DNA of 64,000 nt from NCBI GenBank assembly GCA_043826435.1, contig JBDRQF010000011.1, positions 7,025 through 71,024 on the forward strand. The letters run 5' to 3'. Shown in pieces: positions 17,984-53,975 of the stretch. Source of the DNA: Elusimicrobiota bacterium. GTDB taxonomy: Bacteria > Elusimicrobiota > Endomicrobiia > CG1-02-37-114 > JAHJSO01. Position 1 is the first letter of the stretch. Every line of letters begins with the position of its first letter. The position numbers and the translations under genes were made by a program. The notes beneath the pieces were generated by a model, which saw only the letters and a program-made list of their open reading frames with translations, had not been told where the DNA came from and made no database searches.

Positions 17984-19104
17984 ACGAGGGCTCCCCTGTA
18001 AATATTCTCCGTTTCCTTGACCATCTTTTCCATGTTAAAAAATTTCCTGACTTTTTCCCGGGCATTGTTTCCCATCTTTTTCGCTGCCTCAGTATTTTCA
18101 ATAAGCCATATTATCTTCTCCGAAAGTTCTTTTGGGCTGGCCGGACGGACTATTAACCCGTTGAGCCCGTCGTCAATAATCTCCCGGACGCCGCCAGTGT
18201 CCGTTGAAATTACAGGTCTGCCCTGTGACATCGCCTCAAGCAGGACGTTCGGAGTGCCCTCCCACAGCGACGGCAGGACGAATATGTCGGACGATGAAAT
18301 TATCCGGACGGACTCGTCAGCCGGCTGAAAGCCCGTGAATATCACTTTATCTAGTATTTTCATTTTGAGCGCCTGCGCTTCAAGTTGTCTTTTCTGCGGC
18401 CCGTCACCGGTTATGACGAACAAGACGTTCTTGAATTTTGAAAGTACGGAGGGGATTGCAGAAATAAAATGTTCCATCCCCTTCTGTTCGTGCAGGCGGC
18501 CGGCCGTGCAGACCATAATGTCTCCGTCCGCAATTCCCAATTGCGACCTCACTGCTTCCCTTGCGCCGGGTTGCTGCACCGTTTGCTCAACTCCGTTATA
18601 CAGGACAACGAGTTTGTCGGCCGGCATCCCCCCTTTGACGAGGAAAGATTTGAGCGCCATTGAGTTCACTATGATTTTTCTGCACATGCCCGACGTCAGC
18701 CGTTCAACCGGGGCCTGCCATCTTTTCTGTTTCTCCATCACCCTTATGGAAGAAATGACGGGAACGCCCCCTGCCAGCAGTGCCGACAGTCGCCCCAGTA
18801 TATTCGCCTGGAAAAGAAAGGTATGGACTATGCCTATTTTTTCCCGCCTGATAAAATTCGCGAGCATGATGACAGATGCGACAGCCATAACCGGGAAGGC
18901 AATTATACCATATTTATACATCTCCAGGCAATAGACCTTTATGCCCCGCGCTCTGAGTTTTCCTGCATACTCGCCGCATTTTTTTATTGAGTAAACGAAC
19001 GGATTGAAATCCTTGTTTAACCGCGTGGCGGTCTCATACAGCATTTTTTCCGTGCCGCCCATGTTTAGGTCGGTTATTAAAAACAGGATATTTGTTCCGG
19101 CCAT
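17980..19104 (-). CDS. Glycosyltransferase family 4
   Basis: 374 aa GT-B with a C-terminal [18 protein letters not shown] motif. Confidence 0.8.
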
Positions 19105-20864
19105 TAGAATCCCCTTTTAAATATCTTGACTCCCACATTTTCACTCGGGACGAACGCCGCCGGGAAACGTATTCCGAGAAATCTTTCAACCCCGGGCCAT
19201 GAAATTATTTCGCTGTAAATTTTGCTGAATTGTTCAATGTTTTCAATGTCGTTATATATTTCCGGCACGATTATATATTCCGGGTAGGTGTAACCCCTGC
19301 TGTCCTGCCATGTTTCTTTTTCAAGCGGTACGTTTACAAGTTTGTATTTCAGGAAGTTAAAAGCAGGCATCGTGCCGGGCAGCGCCCATCCGGTCGGGAT
19401 GCCCACGCGGGAATTTCCGGGTATATTTTCGTTTATCCACTCGCCGGCGGCGGTAAAATTGCCGTGAATGACAAATAGGTTGTTCGCGTAGTGGAGAGAT
19501 CTCGCCAGCATAAAAAAAACAACTATTGCCGCGTAAAGCAGGACGCCGGTTTTTAACGCCGGCCTGTTTAATACCTTGAGAAAATGGATTATTGCAGCCG
19601 AAAGACATATTGCTATAACCGGATACCCTATTGACCACACGCCCTGGTGTCTTAAAAAAATTGCATTTGACGCAAAAAAGATGAGCCCGAATATGGAAAT
19701 GATTTTGCCCGCGGGGTTATTGCCGTAGAGCAAAACGGACATGCCCGCCGCAAAAAGCGGCAGGACGGTCCAGTGGTCGCCCCATGTGAAAATTCTGTGA
19801 ATAAATTTAAAGGTTTCAGAAGCATTAAAAATCCCGTAGCCGCTGTATATCTTCTGGTGGAGGATAAATCTCAGGAAACGTTCGGGGTGCAGGAGTAAAA
19901 AGTAATTTGTTGAAAGGAACGCAAGAAAGAAGAAAAACACCCCGAACCACAGTCCCCTGCTCCTGAATGAAAACCTTTTTTCCTTTATGAAGTGGGCGAT
20001 AAAAATTATTAAAATAAAAGACAGGTTGGTTATCAGGGCGCCGGCTGATAGCCCGAGAAAAACCCCTCCCAGCGCATAATATTTTGTCCCGGGAGCGGTA
20101 AATATTTTTAGAATAAAATACAGGCCGGCAAGCAACAGGAGCATTGAGAGAGCATGCGGTTTGGACAGGTGGCTGTGGATTGATACAAGCGGCGAAATCG
20201 CAAGGAACAGGCATGCCAGTGCCGGGTTTGCCACGCCGTTAAAAAATTTTGCGACCACTATGTATAACAATACTACGCTTAAAACGGAAAACAGGGCGCC
20301 GGCCCCACGCACGATAGTATAAATTCTTGTTGTCTCTTCGGGATGAAGGAAATAGTATCCCGTGTCTTTCGTCAGGGATATTATGCCGGCAAGTTTCGCC
20401 GCCACCAGTGACGAAGCCACCGTATAGTAATAAAACCCGCCGTATATGTAGTTCTTCGGGTCAAGGTCAAGTTTTTTAGGGTTCATAGAGGCAAGAGGGA
20501 AAATGGCGTGGGCTTCATCGGAGAGATTTACGTTTATGAAATACGCCCTTGAAAAATCCAGGACAACTTCTTTTGGAATGATGCCAAACGGTTTTGACTT
20601 TTCCGAATGCCCCCATGTATCCAGCATTGATTGTTCTATTTGTTTTAGTTTAACCTTTCCCTTTTCTTCAAATATCTTTTCCCTTTTGGAATAGTAGGCA
20701 TCCCTCAGGGCGATCATCCGGGGGACGTGTCCCTGCAGTTCTTCTTTTGAAGAAAACACCAGGAGGTTCCTGCGCCAGTTGGGAGTTCCCCATTGGATAT
20801 TCCCGAACTGTAAAAATGCAGACAGGGCGGTTAGTGCGGCAATGATAAAAATCTTATTTTTCAT
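19104..20864 (-). CDS. Membrane protein, GT-C-like candidate with N-terminal extracytoplasmic extension
   Basis: Signal/TM at the N-terminus, a ~160-aa hydrophilic region, then at least 9 TM helices. Carries HPEETTRIY and LSDEAH acidic motifs. Confidence 0.45.
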   Translation of the reverse strand: MKNKIFIIAALTALSAFLQFGNIQWGTPNWRRNLLVFSSKEELQGHVPRMIALRDAYYSKREKIFEEKGKVKLKQIEQSMLDTWGHSEKSKPFGIIPKEVVLDFSRAYFINVNLSDEAHAIFPLASMNPKKLDLDPKNYIYGGFYYYTVASSLVAAKLAGIISLTKDTGYYFLHPEETTRIYTIVRGAGALFSVLSVVLLYIVVAKFFNGVANPALACLFLAISPLVSIHSHLSKPHALSMLLLLAGLYFILKIFTAPGTKYYALGGVFLGLSAGALITNLSFILIIFIAHFIKEKRFSFRSRGLWFGVFFFFLAFLSTNYFLLLHPERFLRFILHQKIYSGYGIFNASETFKFIHRIFTWGDHWTVLPLFAAGMSVLLYGNNPAGKIISIFGLIFFASNAIFLRHQGVWSIGYPVIAICLSAAIIHFLKVLNRPALKTGVLLYAAIVVFFMLARSLHYANNLFVIHGNFTAAGEWINENIPGNSRVGIPTGWALPGTMPAFNFLKYKLVNVPLEKETWQDSRGYTYPEYIIVPEIYNDIENIEQFSKIYSEIISWPGVERFLGIRFPAAFVPSENVGVKIFKRGF

Positions 20865-21558
20865 TTTTTTGACAGACACACAAAAGCGACATTCCTGCGG
20901 GCGGCGTAATTATTTTTTCAAACTTTGCAATGAACGGCACAAACTTGTCAAATATCAACGGCTGCAGGATTGAGAATTTTTTTCTTTTCAGCAGCCGGCC
21001 GTTTAAGTACCATCCGAATATGCCGGGAAAGTTGCTGTAATTTATTTTCTTAATTTCAAAACCGGCGTTCTTTACCTTGTCGGAAAGGCCATTTTTGTCG
21101 TAGCGCCTGCAATGAGACAGAAAACGGTCCATCGTGCCGTACAGGGATGACATAGCGGGGACAAAGAGTATAAGTTTTCCCCCCGGGTCAAGGATGTCGT
21201 AAATATTTTTGAGCGACTGAACGTCGTTTTCAACGTGCTCAAGGACGTTGATGCAGACGATGGTGTCAAATTTTTCCGGGAATTTTTGATAGATATATTT
21301 GTCTGAAATATCGGCGCAAATAAAATTTATCGCCTGCCAGTCAATTTTCATGTGCCGGATGTAGGTATCTTCCCTGTCAAGGCAGGTCAGGTTTGTTATG
21401 TCTTTTAAATAACCGGTAATGTTCCCTGTGCCGCAGCCGACCTCAAGGGTCCTTTTGCCTACGTGTGGAAGGATCATATCAAAAATCCACTTGTTGTAAT
21501 TGTGTGCGAGTGCAAACGTTTTTAACACGTTTGATGCATAATCATAATTCATAGACAT
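20854..21558 (-). CDS. Class I SAM-dependent methyltransferase
   Basis: TLEVGCGTGNITGYL (motif I) and DTIVCINVLEHVEND (motif II/post II). Start moved to the internal MSMNYDY to remove a 128-nt overlap. Confidence 0.8.
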   Translation of the reverse strand: MSMNYDYASNVLKTFALAHNYNKWIFDMILPHVGKRTLEVGCGTGNITGYLKDITNLTCLDREDTYIRHMKIDWQAINFICADISDKYIYQKFPEKFDTIVCINVLEHVENDVQSLKNIYDILDPGGKLILFVPAMSSLYGTMDRFLSHCRRYDKNGLSDKVKNAGFEIKKINYSNFPGIFGWYLNGRLLKRKKFSILQPLIFDKFVPFIAKFEKIITPPAGMSLLCVCQKNEK

Positions 21559-23245
21559 ATATTTCAGGCCCTTTTGACGGCGCCGTTTGCCGTTTGCCGC
21601 CGTCCGTTTTATCGGGGAATTGTTTAAGTATCCGGGCGTTCTTTTCAACCCCGGTATAAAAGTCAACAATACCCTTATCCCGTGAATTTAATCCTGAATG
21701 CCTCGCCCAGGAATTCAGTACCAGGTACCGGATGCCCTTTTTTCGCAGGTATTTAAAACCGGGGGCAACGTCAACCAGGTCCTGCATTTTCTCCGCTTCT
21801 TCAACGACATATTTTATCCCGCTGACCTCTGCCGGCGGGCGATAGACCCTGTAAATCTCATAACCGTAATTTCCGTCCGGGTGGGCCTCCAGCAGGAGTT
21901 TTAGGTATTCCTTTTTATAATGGTTCAGCAGGGCCGCCCTGTCGTACAGCCGTTCAAGTTGGGTTTTCGTTTCCTTTATGGGCGGCGAGAAAGGGTACAG
22001 GTCAACAAGGACGGCGGCGCCGTGTGGCAGGTTTTTGTAAATCCACTCTTTTGCAATCGTCCGGTTATCTTTAAGCGTGTAGATATAACCGGTTTTGAGG
22101 CAGAGTATAACGGATGGGGTAAGGACTATGAGAAATGCCAGGATAAATGCCGGGGTGCTCAGTGAAGACGATTTTATTTTGCCGGCAAGTTTATCGGCGA
22201 GCCATCCACCCGCAAGCGCAAGGAACGGGAATGCAGGAAATAAATAACCGATACCGGGGCTGTGATAAAATACCACGGGTATTGAAAACAACGCGACGGG
22301 AACCATCAGGAGAAATCCTTTGGACAACAGCCATATCGCGCCTGCAAGGCACAGCATCCCTGCAAACGGCGGTCCCTGCGGCGGCGTCACGTGTCCCCTG
22401 TTCCCCATAAACAGGATGTTTGAAAAGACCTCCCTGATGTTGATTAATATGCTTGCCGGCGGAGTGCTCGCATGCGCAAAAAAATCCCTTCTGAAAGTGG
22501 CGAAGTCAAGGACGCTGTAAGGGGTGCCTGCTATAAAGGTTACCAGGACGATAGACAGCCCTAACCACAGCCGGGCGTCGGAAAGGGCCGCTATTTTTTT
22601 GTTACGCACAAAATAGACAACGGGCAGCATCACGACCATAGGTATTGCGTTGTAAAAGATTGATATTGATATGCCAAGGGATATACAGGACAGGTAGAAA
22701 TTTTTGTTTTTGCCCTCCATGTAGAATAACGCCAGGAAATAAAACGAAAGGACAAGGAAAAATAAACTCGGCTGGCTCGGCCGTATCTCGTGAGCTGAGA
22801 TTAATACCGAAGGGATGCAGGTAAACAACGCTGCGGCGCAAAGCCCCGCCTTTTTATTGAAGAGGAGTTTTCCCGTTTTATACACCAAAAGGGCCGCGCC
22901 CGTCGTCCACAAGACGGAGAATATCCGGAGCGTCAAATAGACGCCGCTTGGGTCTTTTACAAAGGATATTGCGAATTCCTGCGTGCTTGAGAATGCGCCG
23001 GCAATCCTTCCAATGATAAAATAAATCCCACATACAAAAAAGGTGAAATACAGATACAGGGACGGGTAGTTGAAAAAATGAGGGTTCAGGTCGCCCGTGC
23101 CGAACCTTAAGGCGTAATTCACCACCTTGTACTCCTCGGTGGTGTATATGTGGGGTAAATCATAGTTAATCCCCCACAGGCCCAGTGCCAGAGATGCGAG
23201 CATTATACAGACCGGCAAAATGTTATTTTTCAGGATACCATTCAT
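21542..23245 (-). CDS. GT-C family membrane glycosyltransferase (GT39/PMT_2/ArnT-like)
   Basis: 567 aa with at least 11 TM helices. The first-loop acidic motif YTTEEYKVVNYA and the topology with a C-terminal soluble domain fit PMT_2. Confidence 0.65.
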   Translation of the reverse strand: MNGILKNNILPVCIMLASLALGLWGINYDLPHIYTTEEYKVVNYALRFGTGDLNPHFFNYPSLYLYFTFFVCGIYFIIGRIAGAFSSTQEFAISFVKDPSGVYLTLRIFSVLWTTGAALLVYKTGKLLFNKKAGLCAAALFTCIPSVLISAHEIRPSQPSLFFLVLSFYFLALFYMEGKNKNFYLSCISLGISISIFYNAIPMVVMLPVVYFVRNKKIAALSDARLWLGLSIVLVTFIAGTPYSVLDFATFRRDFFAHASTPPASILINIREVFSNILFMGNRGHVTPPQGPPFAGMLCLAGAIWLLSKGFLLMVPVALFSIPVVFYHSPGIGYLFPAFPFLALAGGWLADKLAGKIKSSSLSTPAFILAFLIVLTPSVILCLKTGYIYTLKDNRTIAKEWIYKNLPHGAAVLVDLYPFSPPIKETKTQLERLYDRAALLNHYKKEYLKLLLEAHPDGNYGYEIYRVYRPPAEVSGIKYVVEEAEKMQDLVDVAPGFKYLRKKGIRYLVLNSWARHSGLNSRDKGIVDFYTGVEKNARILKQFPDKTDGGKRQTAPSKGPEIYVYEL

Positions 23246-26320: not shown

Positions 26321-27811
26321 TCAATCGGATTGTTTTTTAAAATTAAACACGAATAATATTTTTATAAATAAATAGAGTAAATTTATACCGAGAGAAGCGA
26401 GATAGAATAATTCCTTTAGGTTAATAAACCATCTGTCTGAGAGTAGGAACCATCCTACCGGGCCTTCTTTTTCAAGTAGTAAACGGATTACCCTTTTCGG
26501 CCTCAGCGAGAAAAAGAGATTTATTTTGAGCACGTCGTTCACCAGTTCTTTTTCCGTAGTTGTCCGCGGGACATAAGACAGCCGTGAACTTTTGAAGGGT
26601 GATTCCACCAGTGAACCGCAGGCATTGAGATTCTCCCAGTTTTTACCGGTATTCAGCCGGTTTTCTCTTTTTGCAATCTCATAGAGTTCCGTGCCGGGAT
26701 AGGGCGTGGCGTTGTTGAACCTGACATAATTCAGGTCCAGTTGTTTTGCAAGTTTATATGACTGCCATCTTTCTTCTTTCGTTTCAGTCGGCAGTCCTAA
26801 AATAAATGTAGCCGAGACCTGGAATCCGAATTTTTTTACCAGTTTAACCGCTTGTATGTTTTTCTCTACCGTCTCTCCCTTGTTTATCAATTTCATCAAC
26901 CGTTCGGAGGCAGTTTCTATGCCGAAATTAATCGTCCTGAAACCGGCCATTTTCAAATATTCAAGGATTTCCGGATTGATAGAATCGCCTCGCGTTTGAC
27001 AATCAAATTTCGCTTTCAGGTAAAACTTATTTTTGTGCATCAACGTGCATAATTTTTTTGTTCTGTTTTTGTTTACTGTGAAATCATCGTCAACGAACAA
27101 TATATATTTTTGTTTATATTTGTTTATCAACAAATCAAGCAGTTCAATTACTTTTTCAGGATTTATATAGCGATATGTTCTGCCGGAAATACATCTTTGA
27201 CTGCAGAAAATACAATTGTACGGACACCCCCTGGATGTGGCTATAAACCCAAAATTATATTTACCCAGATGTTTTTCAAACAGATGGTAAGGAAATGGTG
27301 GCAGGGAATCCATTGCGGGCAATCTGGCGTCCGGGTTGTGGATTAAGTTACCATGCCTGTCGTTGAATGAAATCCCCTGTATTTTTGAGTAGTCCTCTTT
27401 TCTTTTTATTGACTCATATAGCAAATTAAGGGTTTCTTCCCCTTCCCTTCTGACTACTATATCTACATAACCGGTTTTAAGCGCCTCTTCCGATAATACG
27501 GTCGGGTGTATTCCCCCCAGTATAATCTTTGAATCAGGATATTTTTCCTTTAGCATTTTTGCAAGTTCATATGCTCTGGAAATACCGGCAGTAAGGCATG
27601 AAATACCGAATATGTATGGAGCGACGGTGTCTCTTGAATATTCATCTATAAGTCCGGAATTAATTGGCGTAATGTTTTCATCTATTATTCCGACCTTTCT
27701 GTTCTGGCTGATTAAATATCCTGCCAGGGAGCCGAGACCGATGGGCACATACATCGGGACATACCGCGCAAACTTACCTAATTTTTGAACCTGAGGGTTT
27801 ATCAGAATCAT
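26321..27811 (-). CDS. B12-binding radical SAM protein (class B radical SAM, methyltransferase-like)
   Basis: N-terminal cobalamin-binding domain (...ILGGIHPT...) followed by SRGCPYNCIFCSQ (a CxxxCxxC radical SAM cluster). 496 aa. Confidence 0.85.
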   Translation of the reverse strand: MILINPQVQKLGKFARYVPMYVPIGLGSLAGYLISQNRKVGIIDENITPINSGLIDEYSRDTVAPYIFGISCLTAGISRAYELAKMLKEKYPDSKIILGGIHPTVLSEEALKTGYVDIVVRREGEETLNLLYESIKRKEDYSKIQGISFNDRHGNLIHNPDARLPAMDSLPPFPYHLFEKHLGKYNFGFIATSRGCPYNCIFCSQRCISGRTYRYINPEKVIELLDLLINKYKQKYILFVDDDFTVNKNRTKKLCTLMHKNKFYLKAKFDCQTRGDSINPEILEYLKMAGFRTINFGIETASERLMKLINKGETVEKNIQAVKLVKKFGFQVSATFILGLPTETKEERWQSYKLAKQLDLNYVRFNNATPYPGTELYEIAKRENRLNTGKNWENLNACGSLVESPFKSSRLSYVPRTTTEKELVNDVLKINLFFSLRPKRVIRLLLEKEGPVGWFLLSDRWFINLKELFYLASLGINLLYLFIKILFVFNFKKQSD

Positions 27812-27826
27812 TTATTTATCCGCCGT

Positions 27827-28378
27827 TTAGCCGCCCGGGTCTAATTTTAAAAAATCCTTCAGGAATTTGGACATCACCGCTATGTAATGCCCCTTTTTTG
27901 TATTCTTATATCGCCCGTTTTCTATGACAATACAATTTGATTCAAGTATGTGATGCAGCCGTCTTTTAAAAACATCATCAGGCGGGTATTTGTGTTTCAT
28001 TTCCTCGTAAGAAAGTTTTTTTGCGGGAGATGTTTCAAATTCAATCATCATCCTGCCGGTAATGGTGCGGTCAATGAAAAAATAAAACTGGCAGTAGCCA
28101 ATGAATAAAAAGACATACAGGATGTACCCCGTTATAAAATTAAGTATTTTTGAAACAGACAAAACAACTCTGGAAGTCAAAAGCAGGTCGGCGGGTATTA
28201 GCATAAGGATGTTTACCGGGATTAGAATGTATGCTAATACATAGCCGAGCGTGAACGCATAAAAGGTGATTTTTATTGTTCTGAATCTCTCTTTTATATT
28301 GAATAGATGGAAAATAATTATGTGTATTATAAAAAACAGAATAAAACATAAAAAGCCAATAATTAATCCTTTTAACAT
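27827..28378 (-). CDS. Small membrane protein with C-terminal winged-helix-like domain (paralog A)
   Basis: 183 aa with three N-terminal hydrophobic helices, then a charged cytoplasmic domain (SYEEMKHKYPPDDVFKRRLHHILESNCIVIENGRYKNTKKG). About 45% identical to the adjacent gene. Confidence 0.6.
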   Translation of the reverse strand: MLKGLIIGFLCFILFFIIHIIIFHLFNIKERFRTIKITFYAFTLGYVLAYILIPVNILMLIPADLLLTSRVVLSVSKILNFITGYILYVFLFIGYCQFYFFIDRTITGRMMIEFETSPAKKLSYEEMKHKYPPDDVFKRRLHHILESNCIVIENGRYKNTKKGHYIAVMSKFLKDFLKLDPGG

Positions 28379-28390
28379 GTTTTTTGCTCT

Positions 28391-28945
28391 TTAACCGCCG
28401 GGCCAGACATTCAGAATTTTCTTTGATATTCCGAACAAATTTGCTAAACAGCGTCCCTTTGTCGTATTTCTGTAGTAGCCCGCCTCTTCAACGATGCATC
28501 CGGATTCAACCATGTGTCTGAAGCGTCTTCTATAAATCTCGTCGGGCGAATAGACATTTTTCAGTTCTTCAAAAGAGACGCGTTTTTCCGGATGTCTTTC
28601 CAGTTCAACCATTACTCTGAGAGAGAGAGAACGATCAATTATAAAATAAAACTCGCCGTAAGACATAAAAAGAAAAACATACAGCATAAAACCGGTTACA
28701 AAGTTGAGAACTTTTGATATGGCCAGGACTGTTTCGGATGTCTGCATCGGGTCGGCGGGTATTAGCATAAGGATATCCCCGGAAATTAAAGTATAAAGGA
28801 CGATATAAAGAGGGATGAGTGAAAGGAAAATATTTCTTATTACCCTGAACCTTTTTTCAAATGGACCCCGATAGTGGAATACAATGGAGTGCAATATAAG
28901 GAACAACATGAAACAAAAAAAACCTATCAGGAGTCCTTTTAGCAT
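28391..28945 (-). CDS. Small membrane protein with C-terminal winged-helix-like domain (paralog B)
   Basis: 184 aa, same architecture as paralog A (MLKGLLIGFFCF..., ...SFEELKNVYSPDEIYRRRFRHMVESGCIVEEAGYYRNTTKG). A tandem duplicate. Confidence 0.6.
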   Translation of the reverse strand: MLKGLLIGFFCFMLFLILHSIVFHYRGPFEKRFRVIRNIFLSLIPLYIVLYTLISGDILMLIPADPMQTSETVLAISKVLNFVTGFMLYVFLFMSYGEFYFIIDRSLSLRVMVELERHPEKRVSFEELKNVYSPDEIYRRRFRHMVESGCIVEEAGYYRNTTKGRCLANLFGISKKILNVWPGG

Positions 28946-28961: not shown

Positions 28962-30494
28962 TTACTTCATAAAACTCTGAATTAATTTTATCATGTCAGA
29001 GGGTTGTATGGTTTCTTTATTGCCTAAATACTGTACCGCGAGGGATCCTGCGCAGTTGCCTACAAAGGCAACTATTTCCGGATGGACATTTAAATAGGTT
29101 AAGGGGGATGTAAGAGCCAGGACGGCGTCCCCTGCACCGATCGTGTCAACGATTTTCCATGCCAATGCGGGGACCCTGTATAAACTTCCTTTACTGTAAT
29201 ATAAAGAGCCTTCATGTCCCAGTGTTGTATTTATTTTGGGGCATTTGAGTTGTAGGGCGATTTTTTTAACCATATCTTCTAAATTGCCGTGCTGGTCATG
29301 GCATGCCAGACGGATTTCTTCGTGGTCTAAAACAACATAGTCAGCCCTCGAGTATTTGGTTATCAGATTATATCCTAAATTTGCACTATTGGATTGAGCC
29401 ATCACCACCAGGTAAGGAGAGTTGTTGCAGAGAATATTAACAATTCCATTTGTTATGAACCCATGTCCGAAATCAGCGGAAATTACCATGTCATATCCGC
29501 CCACCATTTTGTTGAATAATTTTATTACATCCTTTTCAAGTTCAGGGTTTATGGGCTGTTCATTTAGAGAGCATATTTCAAACATTTTTTGATTAAAGAC
29601 GCGTTCAAGGAAGCGGGATTTTATTATTGTGGATCCATCATCGCGATAACATGGAAATAATTTTATATTTTTTTTCAGACGCGTCCTGATAAAATATTCC
29701 TTGGTATTTTGTTTACCTAACAGCCCTATAAGACCCACTTCCTTTACAAATCCCGCGATGTGATTTGCCACACACAGGGCGCCACCCGGGTATGTCTCCC
29801 TATGAGTAAATTTTGATGAAACAACCGTTGATTTTGATGCCCGCTGAAACAGATGACAAAAATTATATTCATCAATGATGGGTTCTCCTATGATTAACAC
29901 TTTAAGTTTTTTTAACCCTTCAATTGCATCCAAAACATCCTCAAGGGTGAACTTCTGCGTAAAACCAGAAAGGAAGTGTTTTATTTTGTCAGGCAGGATG
30001 TCAAAATGGTCTTTAAGGAGTTTTGTTGAGGAGAATATCTCTTCGTCCGTAAAAATAAGTTTCCCGCCGATTGATTTGACCACGGATGCTTCCCGGTCAA
30101 GTCGCCCGGTTGCATCGCTTTTTACCGATTCAAAATCGCTACCTTTGACATATAAATCGGGCCTGATGGTTTTCAATGTTTCTTCGGCAGTGGGCCATTG
30201 ATTTATAGCGACATAATCCGCGCAGTCAAGAGCAGCGATTGAGTCCGCCCTTTGTTTTTCGTTAAAGACAGGTCTGCCCGGCCCTCTCTTTATATAACAG
30301 TCGGGCGTGATGGTTACAACCAGAACGTCCCCCATCTTTTTTGCCGCCTGCAGATGTTTAATATGGCCGAAATGCATTAAATCAAAACAGCCGTGGCAAA
30401 GGACAATTTTTTTGCCCTGTTTTTTGATTTTAGTTATTATTTTAGAAAGGGTATTTAAATCTTTGATTTTGGTTGACGGTTCTATTTTGCTCAC
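28962..30494 (-). CDS. Bifunctional sugar-phosphate nucleotidyltransferase (RfaE-domain-II/cytidylyltransferase-like) / PfkB-family sugar kinase, HldE-like with reversed domain order
   Basis: N-terminus: IVLCHGCFDLMHFGHIKHLQAAKKMGDVLVVTITPD (HxGH nucleotidyltransferase, RfaE domain II type). C-terminus: PfkB signature DTIGAGDAVLA. 510 aa. Confidence 0.8.
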   Translation of the reverse strand: MSKIEPSTKIKDLNTLSKIITKIKKQGKKIVLCHGCFDLMHFGHIKHLQAAKKMGDVLVVTITPDCYIKRGPGRPVFNEKQRADSIAALDCADYVAINQWPTAEETLKTIRPDLYVKGSDFESVKSDATGRLDREASVVKSIGGKLIFTDEEIFSSTKLLKDHFDILPDKIKHFLSGFTQKFTLEDVLDAIEGLKKLKVLIIGEPIIDEYNFCHLFQRASKSTVVSSKFTHRETYPGGALCVANHIAGFVKEVGLIGLLGKQNTKEYFIRTRLKKNIKLFPCYRDDGSTIIKSRFLERVFNQKMFEICSLNEQPINPELEKDVIKLFNKMVGGYDMVISADFGHGFITNGIVNILCNNSPYLVVMAQSNSANLGYNLITKYSRADYVVLDHEEIRLACHDQHGNLEDMVKKIALQLKCPKINTTLGHEGSLYYSKGSLYRVPALAWKIVDTIGAGDAVLALTSPLTYLNVHPEIVAFVGNCAGSLAVQYLGNKETIQPSDMIKLIQSFMK

Positions 30495-30539
30495 TATTTT
30501 TCTCCTTTTATTAAATTATACATTTTTTATGTTTGTAAA

Positions 30540-31643
30540 TCAAATAAAATTTATATGTATTGGGGGTTCACCTTTTGGTTTTTCCAAGGTGGTATTTCCG
30601 TGTTTTAAGTCCCACAAAAACTCATTTACCTTATGTTGAAGGCAAAGAGTCCCACACATTGTTTTAGCATCAAAATTATCTAAAGCAATAAAATTCATAA
30701 CCTCCCAATAGCGTTCGCTGCGCCATATCTCTTTAAAAGATTTATCTACAATGTTACCAATGTGATATCTTTTATACTTTCTGTTGAACAACATACCACA
30801 AGGAGCAACAAGTCCTGAACCAGAGAATTGGGTAATAAAAGGTGGGCCATAACATTGGGAATATTTACGTTTCCCTTCACTCAAGATTTTTGACCATTTC
30901 ACTTTCACTAAGTAGCCCTCATCAGAATATCCTTCCGCTTCTTTTAAAACATTAACCAATTCAAAATATTTAGAGTAATTTACTCCTAAACTACCTTTTT
31001 CATCATCACTGCAATGCTTAATGATTGAATAATCAACTCCCAGTTCCTTGCCAAGTTTAGCAAAAGGTATAATCTGGCCGACAAATTGAGGGAGTAAAAC
31101 CATCTGTAAACCCAAAGTAACAGAAAGATTTTTTTCTTTTTTTATTCTTACCGCTTCTTTTATAGTGTTAAGTACTTTATAAAAATGTTCTTCCTTGCAT
31201 CCCATTATTTGAGAATAACGGAGTGGCTCCGCAGCAGAAATATTAAATCTAAGATATGTTAAACAAGGCAAAATTTCTTCTAATTTTTCATCTTTTAATA
31301 AATAGCCGTTTGTTCCCAATGCCATATCCAGTCCATTTGCTTTGCCTCTTAATATCGCATCATATAAATGTGGCGAACAAGTGCTTTCGCCGTCACTGAC
31401 AAAACTTATTGCTTTCACACCAATTTCAGTAGCATCGTCAAGGAATCTGAAAATTACATCTTTTGTCATTCTCTTTTCGTCGTTTGTTTGTAGTTGGCCA
31501 TAGCAATAAATACATCTGTAGGTGCACCTTCTGGTCAGTGAACAATCTATGGTTATAGGAGCAATTCTTTCGCCTCTAAGCCATGCCTCTATTCTATCTG
31601 TATGCCAGAGCATTTTATGACCATCTAAGATTAATTCGTCCAT
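30540..31643 (-). CDS. Radical SAM domain protein (no B12 domain), sugar-modifying candidate
   Basis: CSLTRRCTYRCIYCYG CxxxCxxC motif near the N-terminus, plus C-terminal extra cysteines (possible auxiliary cluster). 367 aa. Confidence 0.8.
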   Translation of the reverse strand: MDELILDGHKMLWHTDRIEAWLRGERIAPITIDCSLTRRCTYRCIYCYGQLQTNDEKRMTKDVIFRFLDDATEIGVKAISFVSDGESTCSPHLYDAILRGKANGLDMALGTNGYLLKDEKLEEILPCLTYLRFNISAAEPLRYSQIMGCKEEHFYKVLNTIKEAVRIKKEKNLSVTLGLQMVLLPQFVGQIIPFAKLGKELGVDYSIIKHCSDDEKGSLGVNYSKYFELVNVLKEAEGYSDEGYLVKVKWSKILSEGKRKYSQCYGPPFITQFSGSGLVAPCGMLFNRKYKRYHIGNIVDKSFKEIWRSERYWEVMNFIALDNFDAKTMCGTLCLQHKVNEFLWDLKHGNTTLEKPKGEPPIHINFI

Positions 31644-31649
31644 ATGTAT

Positions 31650-32429
31650 TTATCCTTTATTTAATGCTTGATAACGCTTTGCCGAGACGGAGTCAGGATT
31701 AATAGTTTGTCTTTCTTTCTTAAAATAAATGTGTGTAAACAATAGAAAAAATCCCTTTATTACTTTATAAAAAGAATGAAAGGACAATGCTTTTGACTTA
31801 CCCTCCTTTCTTAGTTTTAATCTGTAAGGAACTTCTGCAAAAAGATATTTTCTCTTGATTAATCTTATCAAGATATCAGTTTGATAAAAAAAACCGCTAT
31901 TCCTATGTTCCATCTCACTTAATAATGATTTTCTGTAAAGAACAGTTCCATTAGTATAGTTTAGCGAGACAAAAAAGGTATTATTTATAACAAGTTTATA
32001 AACAAACGAAATAAAGTTTCTAAAAAAAGAACGTGTCCCTTTATTAAAAACAAAAGGAATAACTATATCAACATTTTCTAGAAGGTAAATATAACGAAAA
32101 ATTTCTCCGGGCTCATTTTCATTATCCCCCGGTAACATACAAACTATATTTCCTTTTGCATTATCTACTCCATCCCAGAAAGAAGCGCCAAGTCCTTTTG
32201 GTTTGTTATGGTTAATCATTCTAACTTTTTCAGGATTTTCTTCCATTTTGCGTTGTATAATATTAGGAGTTGTATCAGAACTCCCGTCATTAATTACAAC
32301 TATTTCGCCTTTTATCCCAAACTCCCCAAACGCAGATAGAGTATCATCAATAGATGAGGAAATATTTTTTTCTTCATTGAGCGCGGGCATTATAATAGTT
32401 AAAAATATGCTATCGGTTTTATTCGCCAT
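31650..32429 (-). CDS. Glycosyltransferase family 2 (DPM-synthase-like)
   Basis: LTIIMPALNEEKNI...IVVINDGSSDTT DXD-region GT-A signature. 259 aa. Confidence 0.8.
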   Translation of the reverse strand: MANKTDSIFLTIIMPALNEEKNISSSIDDTLSAFGEFGIKGEIVVINDGSSDTTPNIIQRKMEENPEKVRMINHNKPKGLGASFWDGVDNAKGNIVCMLPGDNENEPGEIFRYIYLLENVDIVIPFVFNKGTRSFFRNFISFVYKLVINNTFFVSLNYTNGTVLYRKSLLSEMEHRNSGFFYQTDILIRLIKRKYLFAEVPYRLKLRKEGKSKALSFHSFYKVIKGFFLLFTHIYFKKERQTINPDSVSAKRYQALNKG

Positions 32430-32435
32430 TTTCAG

Positions 32436-33485
32436 TTATTTTTTTAAAAGTTTTTTTATTTCAAAAACTATATTTTCAACATTTGGATAATAAATTTTTT
32501 CTAAAACAGAACTCGCGGGTGTAGGAATATCGGGCAGTGCTATTCTTGATACAGGTGCTTTTAGAAATTTCAGAGCATTTTCCATCAAAAATGAAGAAAT
32601 TTCAGAACTAATTCCGCAAAATTTATAACCAAAATCTAAAACAATCGCCCTTTGCGTTTTTTTAACTGAACTTAGAATTAAATCATAATCAAGAGGCTTT
32701 ATTGTTCGCAAATCTACGATTTCAATATTTATCCCTTCGTCCTCAAGTCTTTTTGCTGCTTCTATTGCTAAGATTGTCATAAATGAATTGGTGATTAAAG
32801 TTAGATCTTTTCCCTCTTTTCTTAATACAGCTTTTCCTAAGGGTATTAAGTAAGGATCCTTTGGGACTATATCCTTATAGTCATAAAGCCATCGGTGTTC
32901 AATAAAAATTACAGGTGACTCATCCAGAATGCTTGACAGTAGCAATCCTTTTACATCATAAGCAGTGGAAGGCATAACGACTTTAAGTCCGGGGACATGG
33001 GTAAATAAAGATTGAAGAGGTTGAGAATGTTGTGCAGCAGACCCCCAGCCACCACCTATTATTGCCCTTACTACAATGGGAACAGATGCTTTCCCACCAA
33101 ACATATATTTCCACTTTGCAGCATGGTTTATTAACTGGTCCATTGATAATAGCATGAAGTCAGTCCTCATGTGAACCAAGACGGGTCTCAACCCTGCCAG
33201 AGAAGACCCAATAGCAATTCCTGTTAAAGTATTTTCACATAAGGGCGTATCAAACACCCTATCACTGCCAAATTCTTTATGAAGATTTAAAGTTGTTCCA
33301 AAAGTTCCGCCGGGGTCATCAACTCCTTCTCCAAATATAAAAACCCTCTTATCTTCTTTTAATGCTAGATACAATGCTTCTTTAATAGCTTCCCTGTAAC
33401 TGATTTCCCTCTCTTTTTTAGACCCTGTTTTCCGAGTGGAAATTTTTATTTTAGATAAATCTATTGGTGCTTTATCCCAGGACAT
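32436..33485 (-). CDS. TPP-dependent 2-oxoacid dehydrogenase E1 beta subunit / transketolase C-terminal-like
   Basis: 349 aa with the ...FGEGVDDPGGTFGTT...FDTPLCENT... motif typical of PDH/acetoin-DH E1-beta. Paired with an E1-alpha just upstream. Confidence 0.85.
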   Translation of the reverse strand: MSWDKAPIDLSKIKISTRKTGSKKEREISYREAIKEALYLALKEDKRVFIFGEGVDDPGGTFGTTLNLHKEFGSDRVFDTPLCENTLTGIAIGSSLAGLRPVLVHMRTDFMLLSMDQLINHAAKWKYMFGGKASVPIVVRAIIGGGWGSAAQHSQPLQSLFTHVPGLKVVMPSTAYDVKGLLLSSILDESPVIFIEHRWLYDYKDIVPKDPYLIPLGKAVLRKEGKDLTLITNSFMTILAIEAAKRLEDEGINIEIVDLRTIKPLDYDLILSSVKKTQRAIVLDFGYKFCGISSEISSFLMENALKFLKAPVSRIALPDIPTPASSVLEKIYYPNVENIVFEIKKLLKK

Positions 33486-33487
33486 AG

Positions 33488-34447
33488 TCAGTAAACATCC
33501 TTATATAGATCTTTTTCTTGAGGATAAGGGCTTTTCAGAGCAAAATCCAGCGCTTCCTCTATCTCTTTTTCTACTTCTCCGTCTATCTGTTTAAGGTCTT
33601 TTTCTTTAAGTAGATTATTTTCCAGGATATATCTTTTGAATTTTTCCAGGGGGCATTTCTTTGTCCATTTTTCAACTTCTTCTTTTTGTCTGAATCCTTT
33701 CTCTACATCTGTTTCAGGACCAACATGAGTTCTCCATCTATATGTTCTTGTTTCAATCAAAGAAGGACCTGAACCATTTCGTGTTCTCGCTATAAATTTT
33801 TTGGCTGTTTTGTGTACCTCAAATACATCATTTCCGTCAATGCAAATACCTGGCATGGAGAAAAAATCCGCTATCTTATAAATGTCAGTATTCACCTGTC
33901 TAACTTTTTGAAGAGAGTTTGTTGCATAAAAATTATTTTCACATACAAATATTATAGGCAACTTCTTTAACGAAGAAAAATTAAGAGATTCATAAAAAAC
34001 ACCTTCATCAACTGCCCCATCGCCAAAAAATGCTATAACAATTCTATTATCTTTCTTTATTTTAGAAGCCAATGCCGATCCAACTGCAATAGGTATTCCC
34101 CCGCCCACAATTGCAGAAGTTCCCAATATAGAATGTTTAACAGATATCATATGCATTGAACCACCTTTTCCGGACGAACAGCCAGTTTTTTTTCCATAAA
34201 GTTCTGCGAATAAAGGTTTTAAATCCACACCTTTGGCAATTAAATGACCGTGGTTTCTATGATTACTGAAGACATAATCTTCTTTTTTTAAGTTGATGCA
34301 AAAACCCACAGCAATAGCTTCTTGACCTATATATAAGTGAACAGGGGTGCACATATCCTGTTTTGGGTAAATTTGAATTATCTTCTCTTCAAATTTTCTA
34401 ATTTTTGTAAGGTAGTAATAAATTTTTTTTAATGTATCAGATGTCAT
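33488..34447 (-). CDS. TPP-dependent E1 alpha subunit (thiamine diphosphate-binding)
   Basis: GDGAVDEGVFYESLNFSSLKKLPIIFVCENNFYA TPP-binding GDG...N motif. 319 aa. Confidence 0.85.
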   Translation of the reverse strand: MTSDTLKKIYYYLTKIRKFEEKIIQIYPKQDMCTPVHLYIGQEAIAVGFCINLKKEDYVFSNHRNHGHLIAKGVDLKPLFAELYGKKTGCSSGKGGSMHMISVKHSILGTSAIVGGGIPIAVGSALASKIKKDNRIVIAFFGDGAVDEGVFYESLNFSSLKKLPIIFVCENNFYATNSLQKVRQVNTDIYKIADFFSMPGICIDGNDVFEVHKTAKKFIARTRNGSGPSLIETRTYRWRTHVGPETDVEKGFRQKEEVEKWTKKCPLEKFKRYILENNLLKEKDLKQIDGEVEKEIEEALDFALKSPYPQEKDLYKDVY

Positions 34448-53070: not shown

Positions 53071-53975
53071 CGTTTAACCGTCCTCAGAATTTCTTCTGCC
53101 CGGTGGTCATAGGTGTGTTTTAAAACAACTTCTCTATGTCCTGTCAGAGCAATCTCCTCTCGTTCTGTTTCGTGTTTCAGGTAATAGTCAATTTTTTCCA
53201 ACAGGTCATTCCCATTATCATATAAAACCAGATGTTTTTTATCTTGGAAAAGTTCTTCCAGTCCTGCTTCCAGTTTTAACCGGTCAGTGATAAGTAAACT
53301 TCCACAAGAAAGCGCTTCGAAAACACGCATATTCAAATCACCCCTTATACTTTTATTGAAAACTATCTTTGCTTGACTATATATTTTAGCCATATCTTCA
53401 CCGAATATTCCTGGAAATACTTGGATATTAAATTTCTGACCAATCAATTTTAACAATGTAACTCTCTCTGGATAAACCATAGGATTGGTGTTACCTACAA
53501 ATACAACATCATAAATTTTGGGCAATTCATATTTTCTATGTATTTCGTGGTCACATGCAACTGGCAACCATTGACTACTATTCCCAAATTTGCACATATA
53601 GTTTTTATGGCAGGAGAAAACATAAGAAAAATCGTTTTTTAAATAGGTGTGAAATTTTATTTTATCTGGTTCATGGGTATCTAATGACCATAATATCGCA
53701 GGGATACTAAGTTTGTTGAATCCTATTAGATGATATTGGCCAGCGGAATCAACTTCAACAATAATGTCAAACGATTTTTTCATTTTTTTTATCACCGATT
53801 GAACATAAACAGGAAGACCTTTAGGAATAAAAAATGGTAGATGGTTGTATAAATTAGTCCAGTATGGCGTTTTACCCAAATCAAAACTTTCCACAAAATG
53901 TTTTTTTCTTAATGCTTTTTCTAAATACATTCCAGTTGTCCAGGGAATTTTATTATATGCCAGAAATATGTTCAT
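53067..53975 (-). CDS. CgeB-like / GT-B C-terminal-domain glycosyltransferase candidate
   Basis: 302 aa. The C-terminal region (VFVGN...ERV..L...G..VFPG..., FEALSCGSLLITD) resembles the CgeB/GT1 C-terminal domain. Confidence 0.45.
   Translation of the reverse strand: MNIFLAYNKIPWTTGMYLEKALRKKHFVESFDLGKTPYWTNLYNHLPFFIPKGLPVYVQSVIKKMKKSFDIIVEVDSAGQYHLIGFNKLSIPAILWSLDTHEPDKIKFHTYLKNDFSYVFSCHKNYMCKFGNSSQWLPVACDHEIHRKYELPKIYDVVFVGNTNPMVYPERVTLLKLIGQKFNIQVFPGIFGEDMAKIYSQAKIVFNKSIRGDLNMRVFEALSCGSLLITDRLKLEAGLEELFQDKKHLVLYDNGNDLLEKIDYYLKHETEREEIALTGHREVVLKHTYDHRAEEILRTVKR

Follow-up and report, generated by a model that had tools for sequence, protein, structure and literature searches.

A tandem pair of small membrane proteins in a glycan gene region

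We analysed a 64,000-nucleotide stretch (hereafter, the window) of contig JBDRQF010000011.1 from the Elusimicrobiota bacterium assembly GCA_043826435.1, in which an earlier note, made by a model from the letters alone, had picked out two adjacent genes for paralogous membrane proteins of about 183 amino acids. The two open reading frames (ORFs), here called B and A, encode proteins of 184 and 183 residues and lie, as that note had it, between the genes for a B12-binding radical S-adenosylmethionine enzyme (B12-rSAM) and a cytidylyltransferase/PfkB kinase fusion (Table 1). B is the first gene of the pair and A the second; 12 nt separate the two, which share a reading frame, and B starts 16 nt after the stop codon of the gene upstream. 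The gene order at the pair is E1 alpha, E1 beta, a family 2 glycosyltransferase (GT2), a radical SAM enzyme with a SPASM domain (rSAM-SPASM), cytidylyltransferase/PfkB, B, A, B12-rSAM and a PMT_2 protein. As described below, A and B belong to a broad family whose members are kept as pairs and are accompanied by one orthologous group of GT2 enzymes, and they may form the membrane part of a polyprenyl-phosphate sugar synthase.

A full-length comparison of the two proteins gave 50% identity (BLASTP E=1e-66), which puts their paralogy far beyond chance. Each has three transmembrane (TM) segments, with a basic loop (KRFRVIR) between TM1 and TM2, as judged from hydropathy and from the charge distribution under the positive-inside rule; on this basis the N-terminus is predicted to lie outside and the last ~80 residues to be cytoplasmic. 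A confident AlphaFold2 (AF2) model of B, built on a 19-sequence alignment (mean predicted local distance difference test score, pLDDT, 86.4; predicted template modelling score, pTM, 0.69), contained three corresponding helices, of which the third is long and runs without a linker into the first helix (H1) of the soluble domain. The architecture proposed in the earlier note, three N-terminal TM helices followed by a C-terminal winged-helix-like domain, fits both the hydropathy and the AF2 topology, as well as the lists of fold matches given below, which are dominated by winged-helix proteins at weak significance. The soluble domain, which the note had put at about 70 residues, has about 80 instead.

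The cytoplasmic domain is predicted to be winged-helix-like

In the AF2 model of B, the soluble domain consists of helices at residues 107-117, 125-131 and 134-147, a beta-hairpin (151-154/157-160) and a last helix at 162-178, and modelling of the isolated domain had the same outcome (pLDDT 85.7). This helix-helix-helix-hairpin-helix order indicates a winged-helix (WH) topology. In Foldseek comparisons with the PDB, the full-length model reached a best E-value of 0.7 and the isolated domain one of 0.13, neither of them significant, and no significant match to PDB sequences came from the family profile or a domain-only profile (best E=0.08 and 0.022). The lists of fold and profile matches consisted almost wholly of WH proteins, with the same region aligned throughout. 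They included YodB (matched to the B domain with a Foldseek probability of 0.99 and a TM-score of about 0.5), the HxlR-type structures 3df8 and 2f2e, MarR, HucR, IclR, PadR/LmrR, Sso10a and AspA, and also the WH domain of Hel308 and the WH dimerisation domain of DnrK-type methyltransferases.

Among 105 family members, the Pfam models of winged helix-turn-helix (wHTH) type that matched were PF25213 HVO_A0261_N (18 members, best E=6e-8), HTH_45 (8 members) and HemN_C (7 members); no wHTH model in Pfam matched A or B themselves. We accepted the soluble domain as winged-helix-like, in the sense of a predicted structure. Membership of the MarR or PadR families, to whose type the earlier note likened it, was not shown: A and B had no Pfam match to these families at E≤10, and neither was among the top families of the 105 members.

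A broad and uncharacterised protein family

When 1.84 billion cluster representatives (50% level) were searched exhaustively with HMMER, 414 proteins came up at E≤1e-3, of which 109 passed E≤1e-10. Almost all are 165-190 residues long and align over their whole length. A word-indexed homologue search with a single protein returned 3 matches only, and a single-protein genome scan found one Elusimicrobia metagenome-assembled genome (MAG) only. The close relatives are in Elusimicrobia MAGs, and one relative is labelled Nitrospinota. At the source, family members are annotated as "hypothetical", with no other name; Pfam and NCBIfam searches with A and B gave noise only, and no NCBIfam model matched any of the 105 members. 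The searchable literature yielded no account of the family or of the enzyme cassette in which it occurs. The proteins had been described in the earlier note as not GtrA-like and as matching no known family, and we concur: there was no GtrA match, and no curated Pfam or NCBIfam model covers A or B. Neither a non-wHTH fold belonging to a known family nor a lack of homologues elsewhere, either of which that note would have taken against its view, was what we observed, and conserved homologues occur well outside this genome. The A/B family is genuinely new, broad and uncharacterised, and any function ascribed to it here is one that we infer.

Conservation was counted over 130 family members, using the numbering of B. 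It covers His19, Phe23 and His24 in the TM1 region, Arg32 shortly after it, and Gly85, Leu92, Tyr96, Phe99 and Tyr100 in TM3. The best-conserved stretch is the junction between TM3 and the WH domain (Asp104-Arg105-Ser106, Ser108, Arg110 and Glu114, with the pattern D-R-S-x-S-x-R), and within the WH domain itself the conserved positions are Tyr132, Arg141-Leu142, Gly149, Tyr158 and Thr161-x-Lys163-Gly164. Polar and aromatic positions that are conserved are found together at the cytoplasmic edge of the membrane and not within the core of the bilayer. An anchor that binds haem in the manner of SdhC/SdhD, which the histidines in the TM helices and the 3+3 TM arrangement had brought to mind, was dropped because Gln or Arg replaces the histidines in 18-25% of members and because there was no conserved redox partner.

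The sequence LMLIPAD, which the earlier note presented as a conserved motif, was rejected as a functional motif of the family, since its columns (61-68) are occupied in only 7-22% of the 130 members. The alignment shows it to be an insertion in the periplasmic loop that is specific to one clade and conserved only in A, B and their closest relatives. At the other end of the protein, an L-x-L-G-x-G-G sequence stands directly before the stop codon, and 66 of the 130 members end in Gly-Gly. A conserved free C-terminal Gly-Gly is unusual for a membrane protein; a ubiquitin-like role for it was considered and dropped, as the gene context gives no support.

Family members are kept as tandem pairs

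Two adjacent family genes were present in 12 of 13 loci anchored on the family, namely the window and the loci L001, L004, L005, L007, L008, L010, L011, L012, L013, L015 and L016, while L014 carries a single copy. The second member in L010 (10527-11063) is publicly called as a 144-residue protein that appears to start too late; the family hidden Markov model (HMM) aligns from an upstream Met, which gives 178 residues including TM1.

The tandem duplication pointed out in the earlier note is real, although it is not recent or peculiar to this genome, being family-wide and often ancient. Pair partners are often only 20-35% identical, and the members group across loci according to their position in the pair (L008_1 with L011_1; L008_2 with L011_2; L004_2, L005_2 and L007_2 with L012_2). 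In old pairs the DRS motif is often lost from one partner. Together, the low partner identity, the position-specific groups and the one-sided loss of DRS indicate that the duplication is ancient and has been maintained. A and B, at 50% identity and with DRS/DRT kept in both, are a relatively symmetric example. From these sequence patterns, such a maintained old duplication is probably the signature of an obligate, asymmetric hetero-oligomer.

A glycosyltransferase without TM helices accompanies the pair

In the window and in L001, L004, L005, L012, L014, L015 and L016, the pair occurs together with a GT2 from a single orthologous group. Its members are mutual best hits (100-263 bits, 31-50% identity) and have no C-terminal TM helices; the member in L012 is the N-terminal half of a fusion between GT2 and a short-chain dehydrogenase/reductase (SDR). 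A GxSK motif is found near residue 205-218 in 7 of the 8 members, and the group is distinct from the six other short GT2s of the window. Viewed from the pair, this group is present in 8 loci and absent or undetermined in L010 and L011. When compared with PDB sequences, the window GT2 matched ArnC (E=7e-12), the Pyrococcus dolichol-phosphate mannose (DPM) synthase PfDPMS (2e-10) and GtrB (9e-8), aligned with all three through the GxSK motif and ended where their TM helices start.

By these comparisons, the constant neighbour of the pair is a TM-less GT2 of the ArnC/DPM1 type, and not the B12-rSAM or the GT-C (glycosyltransferases of the C fold type) genes that the earlier note had proposed to survey. 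The B12-rSAM was rejected as a conserved partner, as there is no rSAM gene near the pair in L010, L012, L015 and L016.

For the reciprocal test, we scanned metagenome contigs with the GT2 alignment, which gave 80 loci, and ran the family HMM on them. Family members were found in 31 of the 80 loci, 28 of these having two copies. A locus counted as long if it extended 4 kb or more in each direction from the GT2 (n=30), and the pair was present in 18 of these, an enormous enrichment for a family of ~414 clusters among 1.8e9 representatives. In the other 12 long loci, relaxing the threshold to E<10 still yielded no family member. Where the pair is present, it often starts within ~100 bp downstream of the GT2; at least 11 loci show the two directly adjacent as [GT2][pair], four have [GT2][SPASM][pair], and in L016 the stop codon of the GT2 overlaps the start of the pair. 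Fusions of the GT2 to rSAM-SPASM occur in L076 (9995-11845) and L068 (6929-8095), and a SIS-GT2 fusion in L021 (3924-5345). The GT2-SPASM fusions suggest that the two enzymes act together, on a nucleotide sugar or on a polyprenyl-phosphate sugar. Going by local gene content, the pair is a specific but facultative accessory of the GT2 cassette.

A possible membrane platform for a split synthase

The reading that we favour, tentatively, is that A and B form a heteromeric membrane subunit, for docking or lipid presentation, of a split polyprenyl-phosphate sugar synthase, and would be analogous in this to DPM2/DPM3, which serve the TM-less DPM1 of many eukaryotes. DPM synthase comprises Dpm1, Dpm2 and Dpm3 in many organisms, and in yeast the TM domain of Dpm1 itself fills the role of Dpm3 (PMC7728079). 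On our model, A and B would be the two subunits of a hetero-oligomeric inner-membrane accessory in the synthase module. Each subunit would cross the membrane three times, with its N-terminus outside and its C-terminus inside. With TM3 continuing into WH helix 1, each WH domain would sit immediately at the cytoplasmic surface of the membrane. These domains would act as protein-protein docking modules through which the pair brings the soluble GT2 to the membrane, along with the rSAM-SPASM enzyme that is its neighbour or is fused to it. The interfacial cluster formed by His19, His24, Arg32, Tyr96, Tyr100, Asp104-Arg105-Ser106, Ser108 and Arg110 may bind or present the polyprenyl-phosphate head group. 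An adaptor that docks a cytoplasmic enzyme to the GT-C machinery had been one of the two suggestions of the earlier note; docking is the part of it that the context analysis favours, with the GT2 as partner, and GT-C genes proved not to be constant.

Several observations weigh against this reading. We predicted that loci without the pair would have a self-anchored GT2, and this prediction failed in the long loci, where the GT2 is TM-less both with and without the pair; only three short contigs have a GT2 bearing an N-terminal TM helix. The 12 negative loci among the 30, with their TM-less GT2, indicate that this enzyme is not strictly dependent on a locally encoded pair. Conversely, L010 has the pair together with TM-bearing GT2s of another type. 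No fusion of a GT2 to a family member was seen among the 150 best matches, and the DPM2 and DPM3 models of Pfam did not match A, B or family members, which would make the pair an analogue and not a homologue. The WH assignment, for its part, depends on the AF2 model and on matches that are individually non-significant (Foldseek 0.13, PDB profile 0.022). Our caution has two main causes, namely that the interaction is one that we infer and that 40% of the loci with the same GT2 are without the pair, which is also a point of difference from DPM2/DPM3. The wider proposition that this is an unrecognised, widespread bacterial family of 3-TM-plus-winged-helix heterodimers, serving either as the membrane half of a split polyprenyl-phosphate glycosyltransferase (a non-homologous counterpart of DPM2/DPM3) or as a new class of lipid-linked-sugar flippase, appears to us nearly as probable as its opposite.

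Taken by itself, the second of these possibilities seems unlikely to us. The pair would here be a flippase, a heterodimer with 3+3 TM helices, that moves the polyprenyl-monophosphate sugar produced by the GT2 and is coupled to the synthase by its WH domains. The pair would then fill the slot held elsewhere by GtrA, ArnE/ArnF, the SMR-type Rv3789 or MATE proteins, a slot that is filled by unrelated families, none of them shown directly (PMC11127046). Such a reading would suit the loci that combine a polyprenyl-phosphate-type GT2 with large polytopic GT-C-like proteins (PMT_2, YfhO, DUF2079, DUF6044) and in which a flippase for monophosphate sugars can seldom be recognised; in the window, Wzx is the one flippase, and serves the pyrophosphate (PP)-linked unit. 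The order [GT2][pair]...[GT-C-like] resembles gtrB/gtrA/gtrC and arnC..arnE/arnF/arnT, L012 and L015 look Arn-like (deacetylase, or formyltransferase with DegT), and ArnE and ArnF are likewise tandem small paralogues. However, proteins of the A/B family cross the membrane three times and are not similar to GtrA, EamA/SMR or MATE proteins, their conservation is at the cytoplasmic interface with no conserved polar residues mid-bilayer, and a flippase leaves the conserved WH domain without evident use. LPG_synthase_TM/COG0392, a predicted flippase (PMC5898192), lies beside the pair or the GT2 in L005, L007, L014, L015 and L065, and those loci would then hold two flippases. The distribution of the pair showed no pattern of complementarity with GtrA, EamA or LPG_synthase_TM flippases, and the negative loci had no consistent substitute membrane protein, with one EamA-like protein, one PQ-loop protein and no GtrA among them.

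Two further roles were weighed. Quite improbable, in our view, is that the pair is an adaptor for later steps, which either tethers tailoring enzymes (the membrane-anchored B12-rSAM, DprE1/E2-like enzymes, a deacetylase) or hands the product to a GT-C enzyme. Just downstream of the pair, the window and five other loci (L001/L017, L029, L079, L090) do encode a B12-rSAM of one subfamily, with a TM helix at its C-terminus, and five others a GT-C-like protein (DUF2079 or PMT_2), but these downstream neighbours are heterogeneous and none is conserved. HemN_C, which seven members matched, is the WH-like C-terminal domain of an rSAM family, and a pair that is optional for the GT2 cassette is what would be expected of a step-specific accessory; however, the four loci without rSAM genes around the pair do not fit, and B12-rSAM genes are equally frequent in loci with (8/18) and without (6/12) the pair. 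The remaining suggestion of the earlier note, that these are membrane-tethered winged-helix transcription regulators which sense lipid-linked intermediates and control the glycan operon, strikes us as very improbable, the positive evidence for it lying in the fold. Its nearest analogues are mostly DNA-binding (YodB, HxlR, MarR, IclR, PadR, Sso10a), membrane-bound one-component regulators such as BcrR, ToxR and CadC are known, and the WH domain is net basic (family mean charge +4.6). The wing tip, however, is rich in Gly, Glu and Asp, the WH domains that rank equally high include some that do not bind DNA (DnrK-type methyltransferase dimerisation), and conservation is strongest in the TM helices and at the TM3/WH junction instead of on the surface of the recognition helix. 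WH H1 begins at the membrane, with no linker. The genes themselves are located mid-operon between enzymes, with 12-16 nt spacers, are translationally coupled to the GT2 elsewhere, and have been kept as anciently diverged pairs with asymmetric motif loss, all of which speaks against a regulator.

Enzymes and other genes around the pair

The GT2 is surrounded in most loci (in the window at 28962-34447, and in 30 metagenome loci, L017-L096) by a cassette of CTP-transferase/PfkB, SIS isomerase, E1 alpha/beta and rSAM-SPASM. Across the 30 long GT2 loci, rSAM-SPASM was present in 26, E1 alpha in 27 and CTP-transferase/PfkB in 23. Distant relatives (33-37% identity) have the same genes in shuffled order, and the neighbours that vary between loci are B12-rSAM, DUF2079, PMT_2, DprE1/E2-like, formyltransferase and deacetylase genes. 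The product of the cassette is probably an unusual lipid-linked sugar, possibly chain-extended or branched. In HldE of Escherichia coli the order of the domains is the reverse of that in the CTP-transferase/PfkB kinase of the cassette. An ORF of 163-165 residues is found in place of E1 beta, just upstream of the GT2, in L035, L040, L054, L079 and L089 (e.g. L089 9442-9936), and may be a truncated or split E1 beta.

The hydrophobic C-terminal helix of the B12-rSAM next to the pair suggests that this enzyme acts on a membrane-bound lipid-linked substrate. Neither the B12-rSAM of the window at 53972 nor the SPASM enzyme has such a helix. In L016 (678-5619), genes for an SDR, an amidohydrolase and a FAD_binding_4/ALO oxidase come after those for the GT2 and the pair. 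The set recalls DprE2/DprE1, the enzymes that epimerise a decaprenyl-phosphate-linked sugar; by analogy, it supports tailoring on a lipid-linked intermediate. Two distant loci, L004 (13101-13442) and L005 (16925-17275), encode a conserved protein of 113-116 residues, with no Pfam match, after and overlapping a B12-rSAM of 597 residues.

From ~11.6 kb to its end, the window is one co-directional glycan region of unusually large size. It encodes a WecA/MraY-type transferase, a Wzy-like protein, one Wzx, AsnB, at least three DegT proteins, epimerases and methyltransferases, as well as at least seven PMT_2 GT-C proteins, at least seven short GT2s, one rSAM-SPASM and four B12-rSAMs (26321, 44522, 53972, 62681). 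The GC content is 0.34-0.39 at 24-36 kb and 0.32-0.34 at 52-56 kb, compared with 0.45-0.51 elsewhere, and these dips suggest mosaic or horizontally acquired modules. The longest ORF of a methyltransferase gene (20854-21669) starts with a TTG at 21669 and overlaps the upstream PMT_2 gene (21542-23245) by ~128 nt; its true start is probably further downstream. On the other side it adjoins the ORF at 19104-20879.

Table 1. Coordinates, in the window, of the gene pair, its predicted protein segments and the neighbouring enzyme genes
Feature	Position	Strand	Basis
Paralogue B, 184 aa, three TM segments and a cytoplasmic winged-helix-like domain	28391-28945	minus	ORF; family HMM E=4e-67
Paralogue A, 183 aa, architecture as B	27827-28378	minus	ORF; family HMM E=7e-63
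B TM1, residues 2-26; family-conserved His19 and His24 near the cytoplasmic end	28868-28942	minus	Hydropathy, alignment, AF2
B TM2, residues 32-53; preceded by basic cytoplasmic loop KRFRVIR	28787-28852	minus	Hydropathy, AF2
B TM3, residues 71-105; conserved Gly85, Tyr96, Phe99, Tyr100; ends at the D104-R105-S106 junction motif	28631-28735	minus	Alignment, AF2
B predicted winged-helix-like domain, residues 107-178: H1, H2, H3, beta-hairpin wing, C-terminal helix	28412-28627	minus	AF2, match lists made up of WH proteins, Pfam wHTH matches of family members
B C-terminal W-P-G-G	28394-28405	minus	Family alignment
A C-terminal end of L-x-L-G-x-G-G type	27830-27841	minus	Family alignment
Cytidylyltransferase-like/PfkB kinase fusion, 510 aa, directly upstream of the pair	28962-30494	minus	Pfam
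rSAM-SPASM enzyme, 367 aa, immediately downstream of the GT2	30540-31643	minus	Pfam
TM-less ArnC/DPM1/GtrB-type GT2, 259 aa, GKSK motif at residue 210; proposed docking partner	31650-32429	minus	PDB sequence matches
E1 beta and E1 alpha, thiamine pyrophosphate (TPP)-dependent, conserved cassette members	32436-34447	minus	Pfam
B12-binding radical SAM enzyme, 496 aa, C-terminal hydrophobic helix ~468-492, directly downstream of the pair	26321-27811	minus	Pfam, hydropathy

Significance and comparison with known systems

Polyprenyl-phosphate sugars used in extracytoplasmic glycosylation (GtrABC, ArnC-T, DPM/PMT and the mycobacterial decaprenyl-phosphate arabinose, DPA, systems) shape O-antigens, teichoic acids, antibiotic resistance and protein glycosylation, and the small membrane components are the least understood part of these pathways. 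That a small membrane accessory, as A and B appear to be, takes part in polyprenyl-phosphate glycosylation is known in kind; what is new here is the family, its 3-TM-plus-winged-helix architecture and its probable heteromeric pairing. In its gene neighbourhoods the family is closely tied to a single TM-less synthase of the ArnC/DPM1 type and to sugar-tailoring radical SAM enzymes. If the pair is the membrane subunit of the synthase, the solution represented by the split DPM synthase of eukaryotes would have arisen independently in bacteria, and if docking is correct, winged-helix domains would gain a new role at the membrane that does not involve DNA. If the pair is a flippase, it would represent a new transporter class. 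Under either reading the pair would be a new component of synthase/flippase/GT-C systems and is a concrete candidate for a missing part. It is also a marker for the cassette of CTP-transferase/kinase, SIS, E1 alpha/beta, rSAM-SPASM and GT2 in Elusimicrobia and other uncultivated lineages.

The predicted soluble domain shares with regulators of the HxlR/YodB, MarR and PadR types the helix-helix-helix-hairpin-helix order and a sequence pattern, "...RRL..M...G.l....g.Y.lT.KG", and these proteins supplied its top profile and fold matches. However, they are soluble, homodimeric and DNA-binding, whereas A and B are integral membrane proteins that are paired and encoded in an enzyme operon. Another parallel, in the proposed use of the fold, is the N-terminal WH domain of O-methyltransferases of the DnrK/TamK type, which serves protein-protein contact and not DNA binding and was among the best Foldseek matches (E=0.13-0.6); it differs in being part of a soluble enzyme without a membrane segment, and the similarity is weak.

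Like A and B, ArnE/ArnF and GtrA are small proteins of the inner membrane whose genes lie next to those of an ArnC/GtrB-type GT2 and a GT-C transferase. ArnE and ArnF are in addition a tandem paralogous pair that is thought to be heterodimeric, and some loci of the A/B family have Arn-like neighbours (formyltransferase, DegT, deacetylase). ArnE/ArnF and GtrA nevertheless have four TM helices and no soluble domain, and belong to EamA/SMR-like or GtrA families of Pfam (GtrA PF04138, ~120-150 aa), whereas the GtrA, EamA and SMR models of Pfam matched neither A or B nor the tested family members, and A and B have no conserved intramembrane polar residues.

The system to which we would compare the pair, DPM2/DPM3, likewise has two small membrane proteins that accompany an anchor-less GT2 of the DPM1 type, and one of the two has a cytoplasmic tethering domain (PMC7728079). 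The members of the A/B family differ in having three TM helices instead of two and a winged-helix-like domain of ~80 residues instead of a short helical tail, and A and B are paralogous to each other. The catalytic partner, a proposed one in the case of the pair, is TM-less in both: the window GT2, at 259 residues, has no TM helices, and its orthologues in 7 other loci are TM-less as well.

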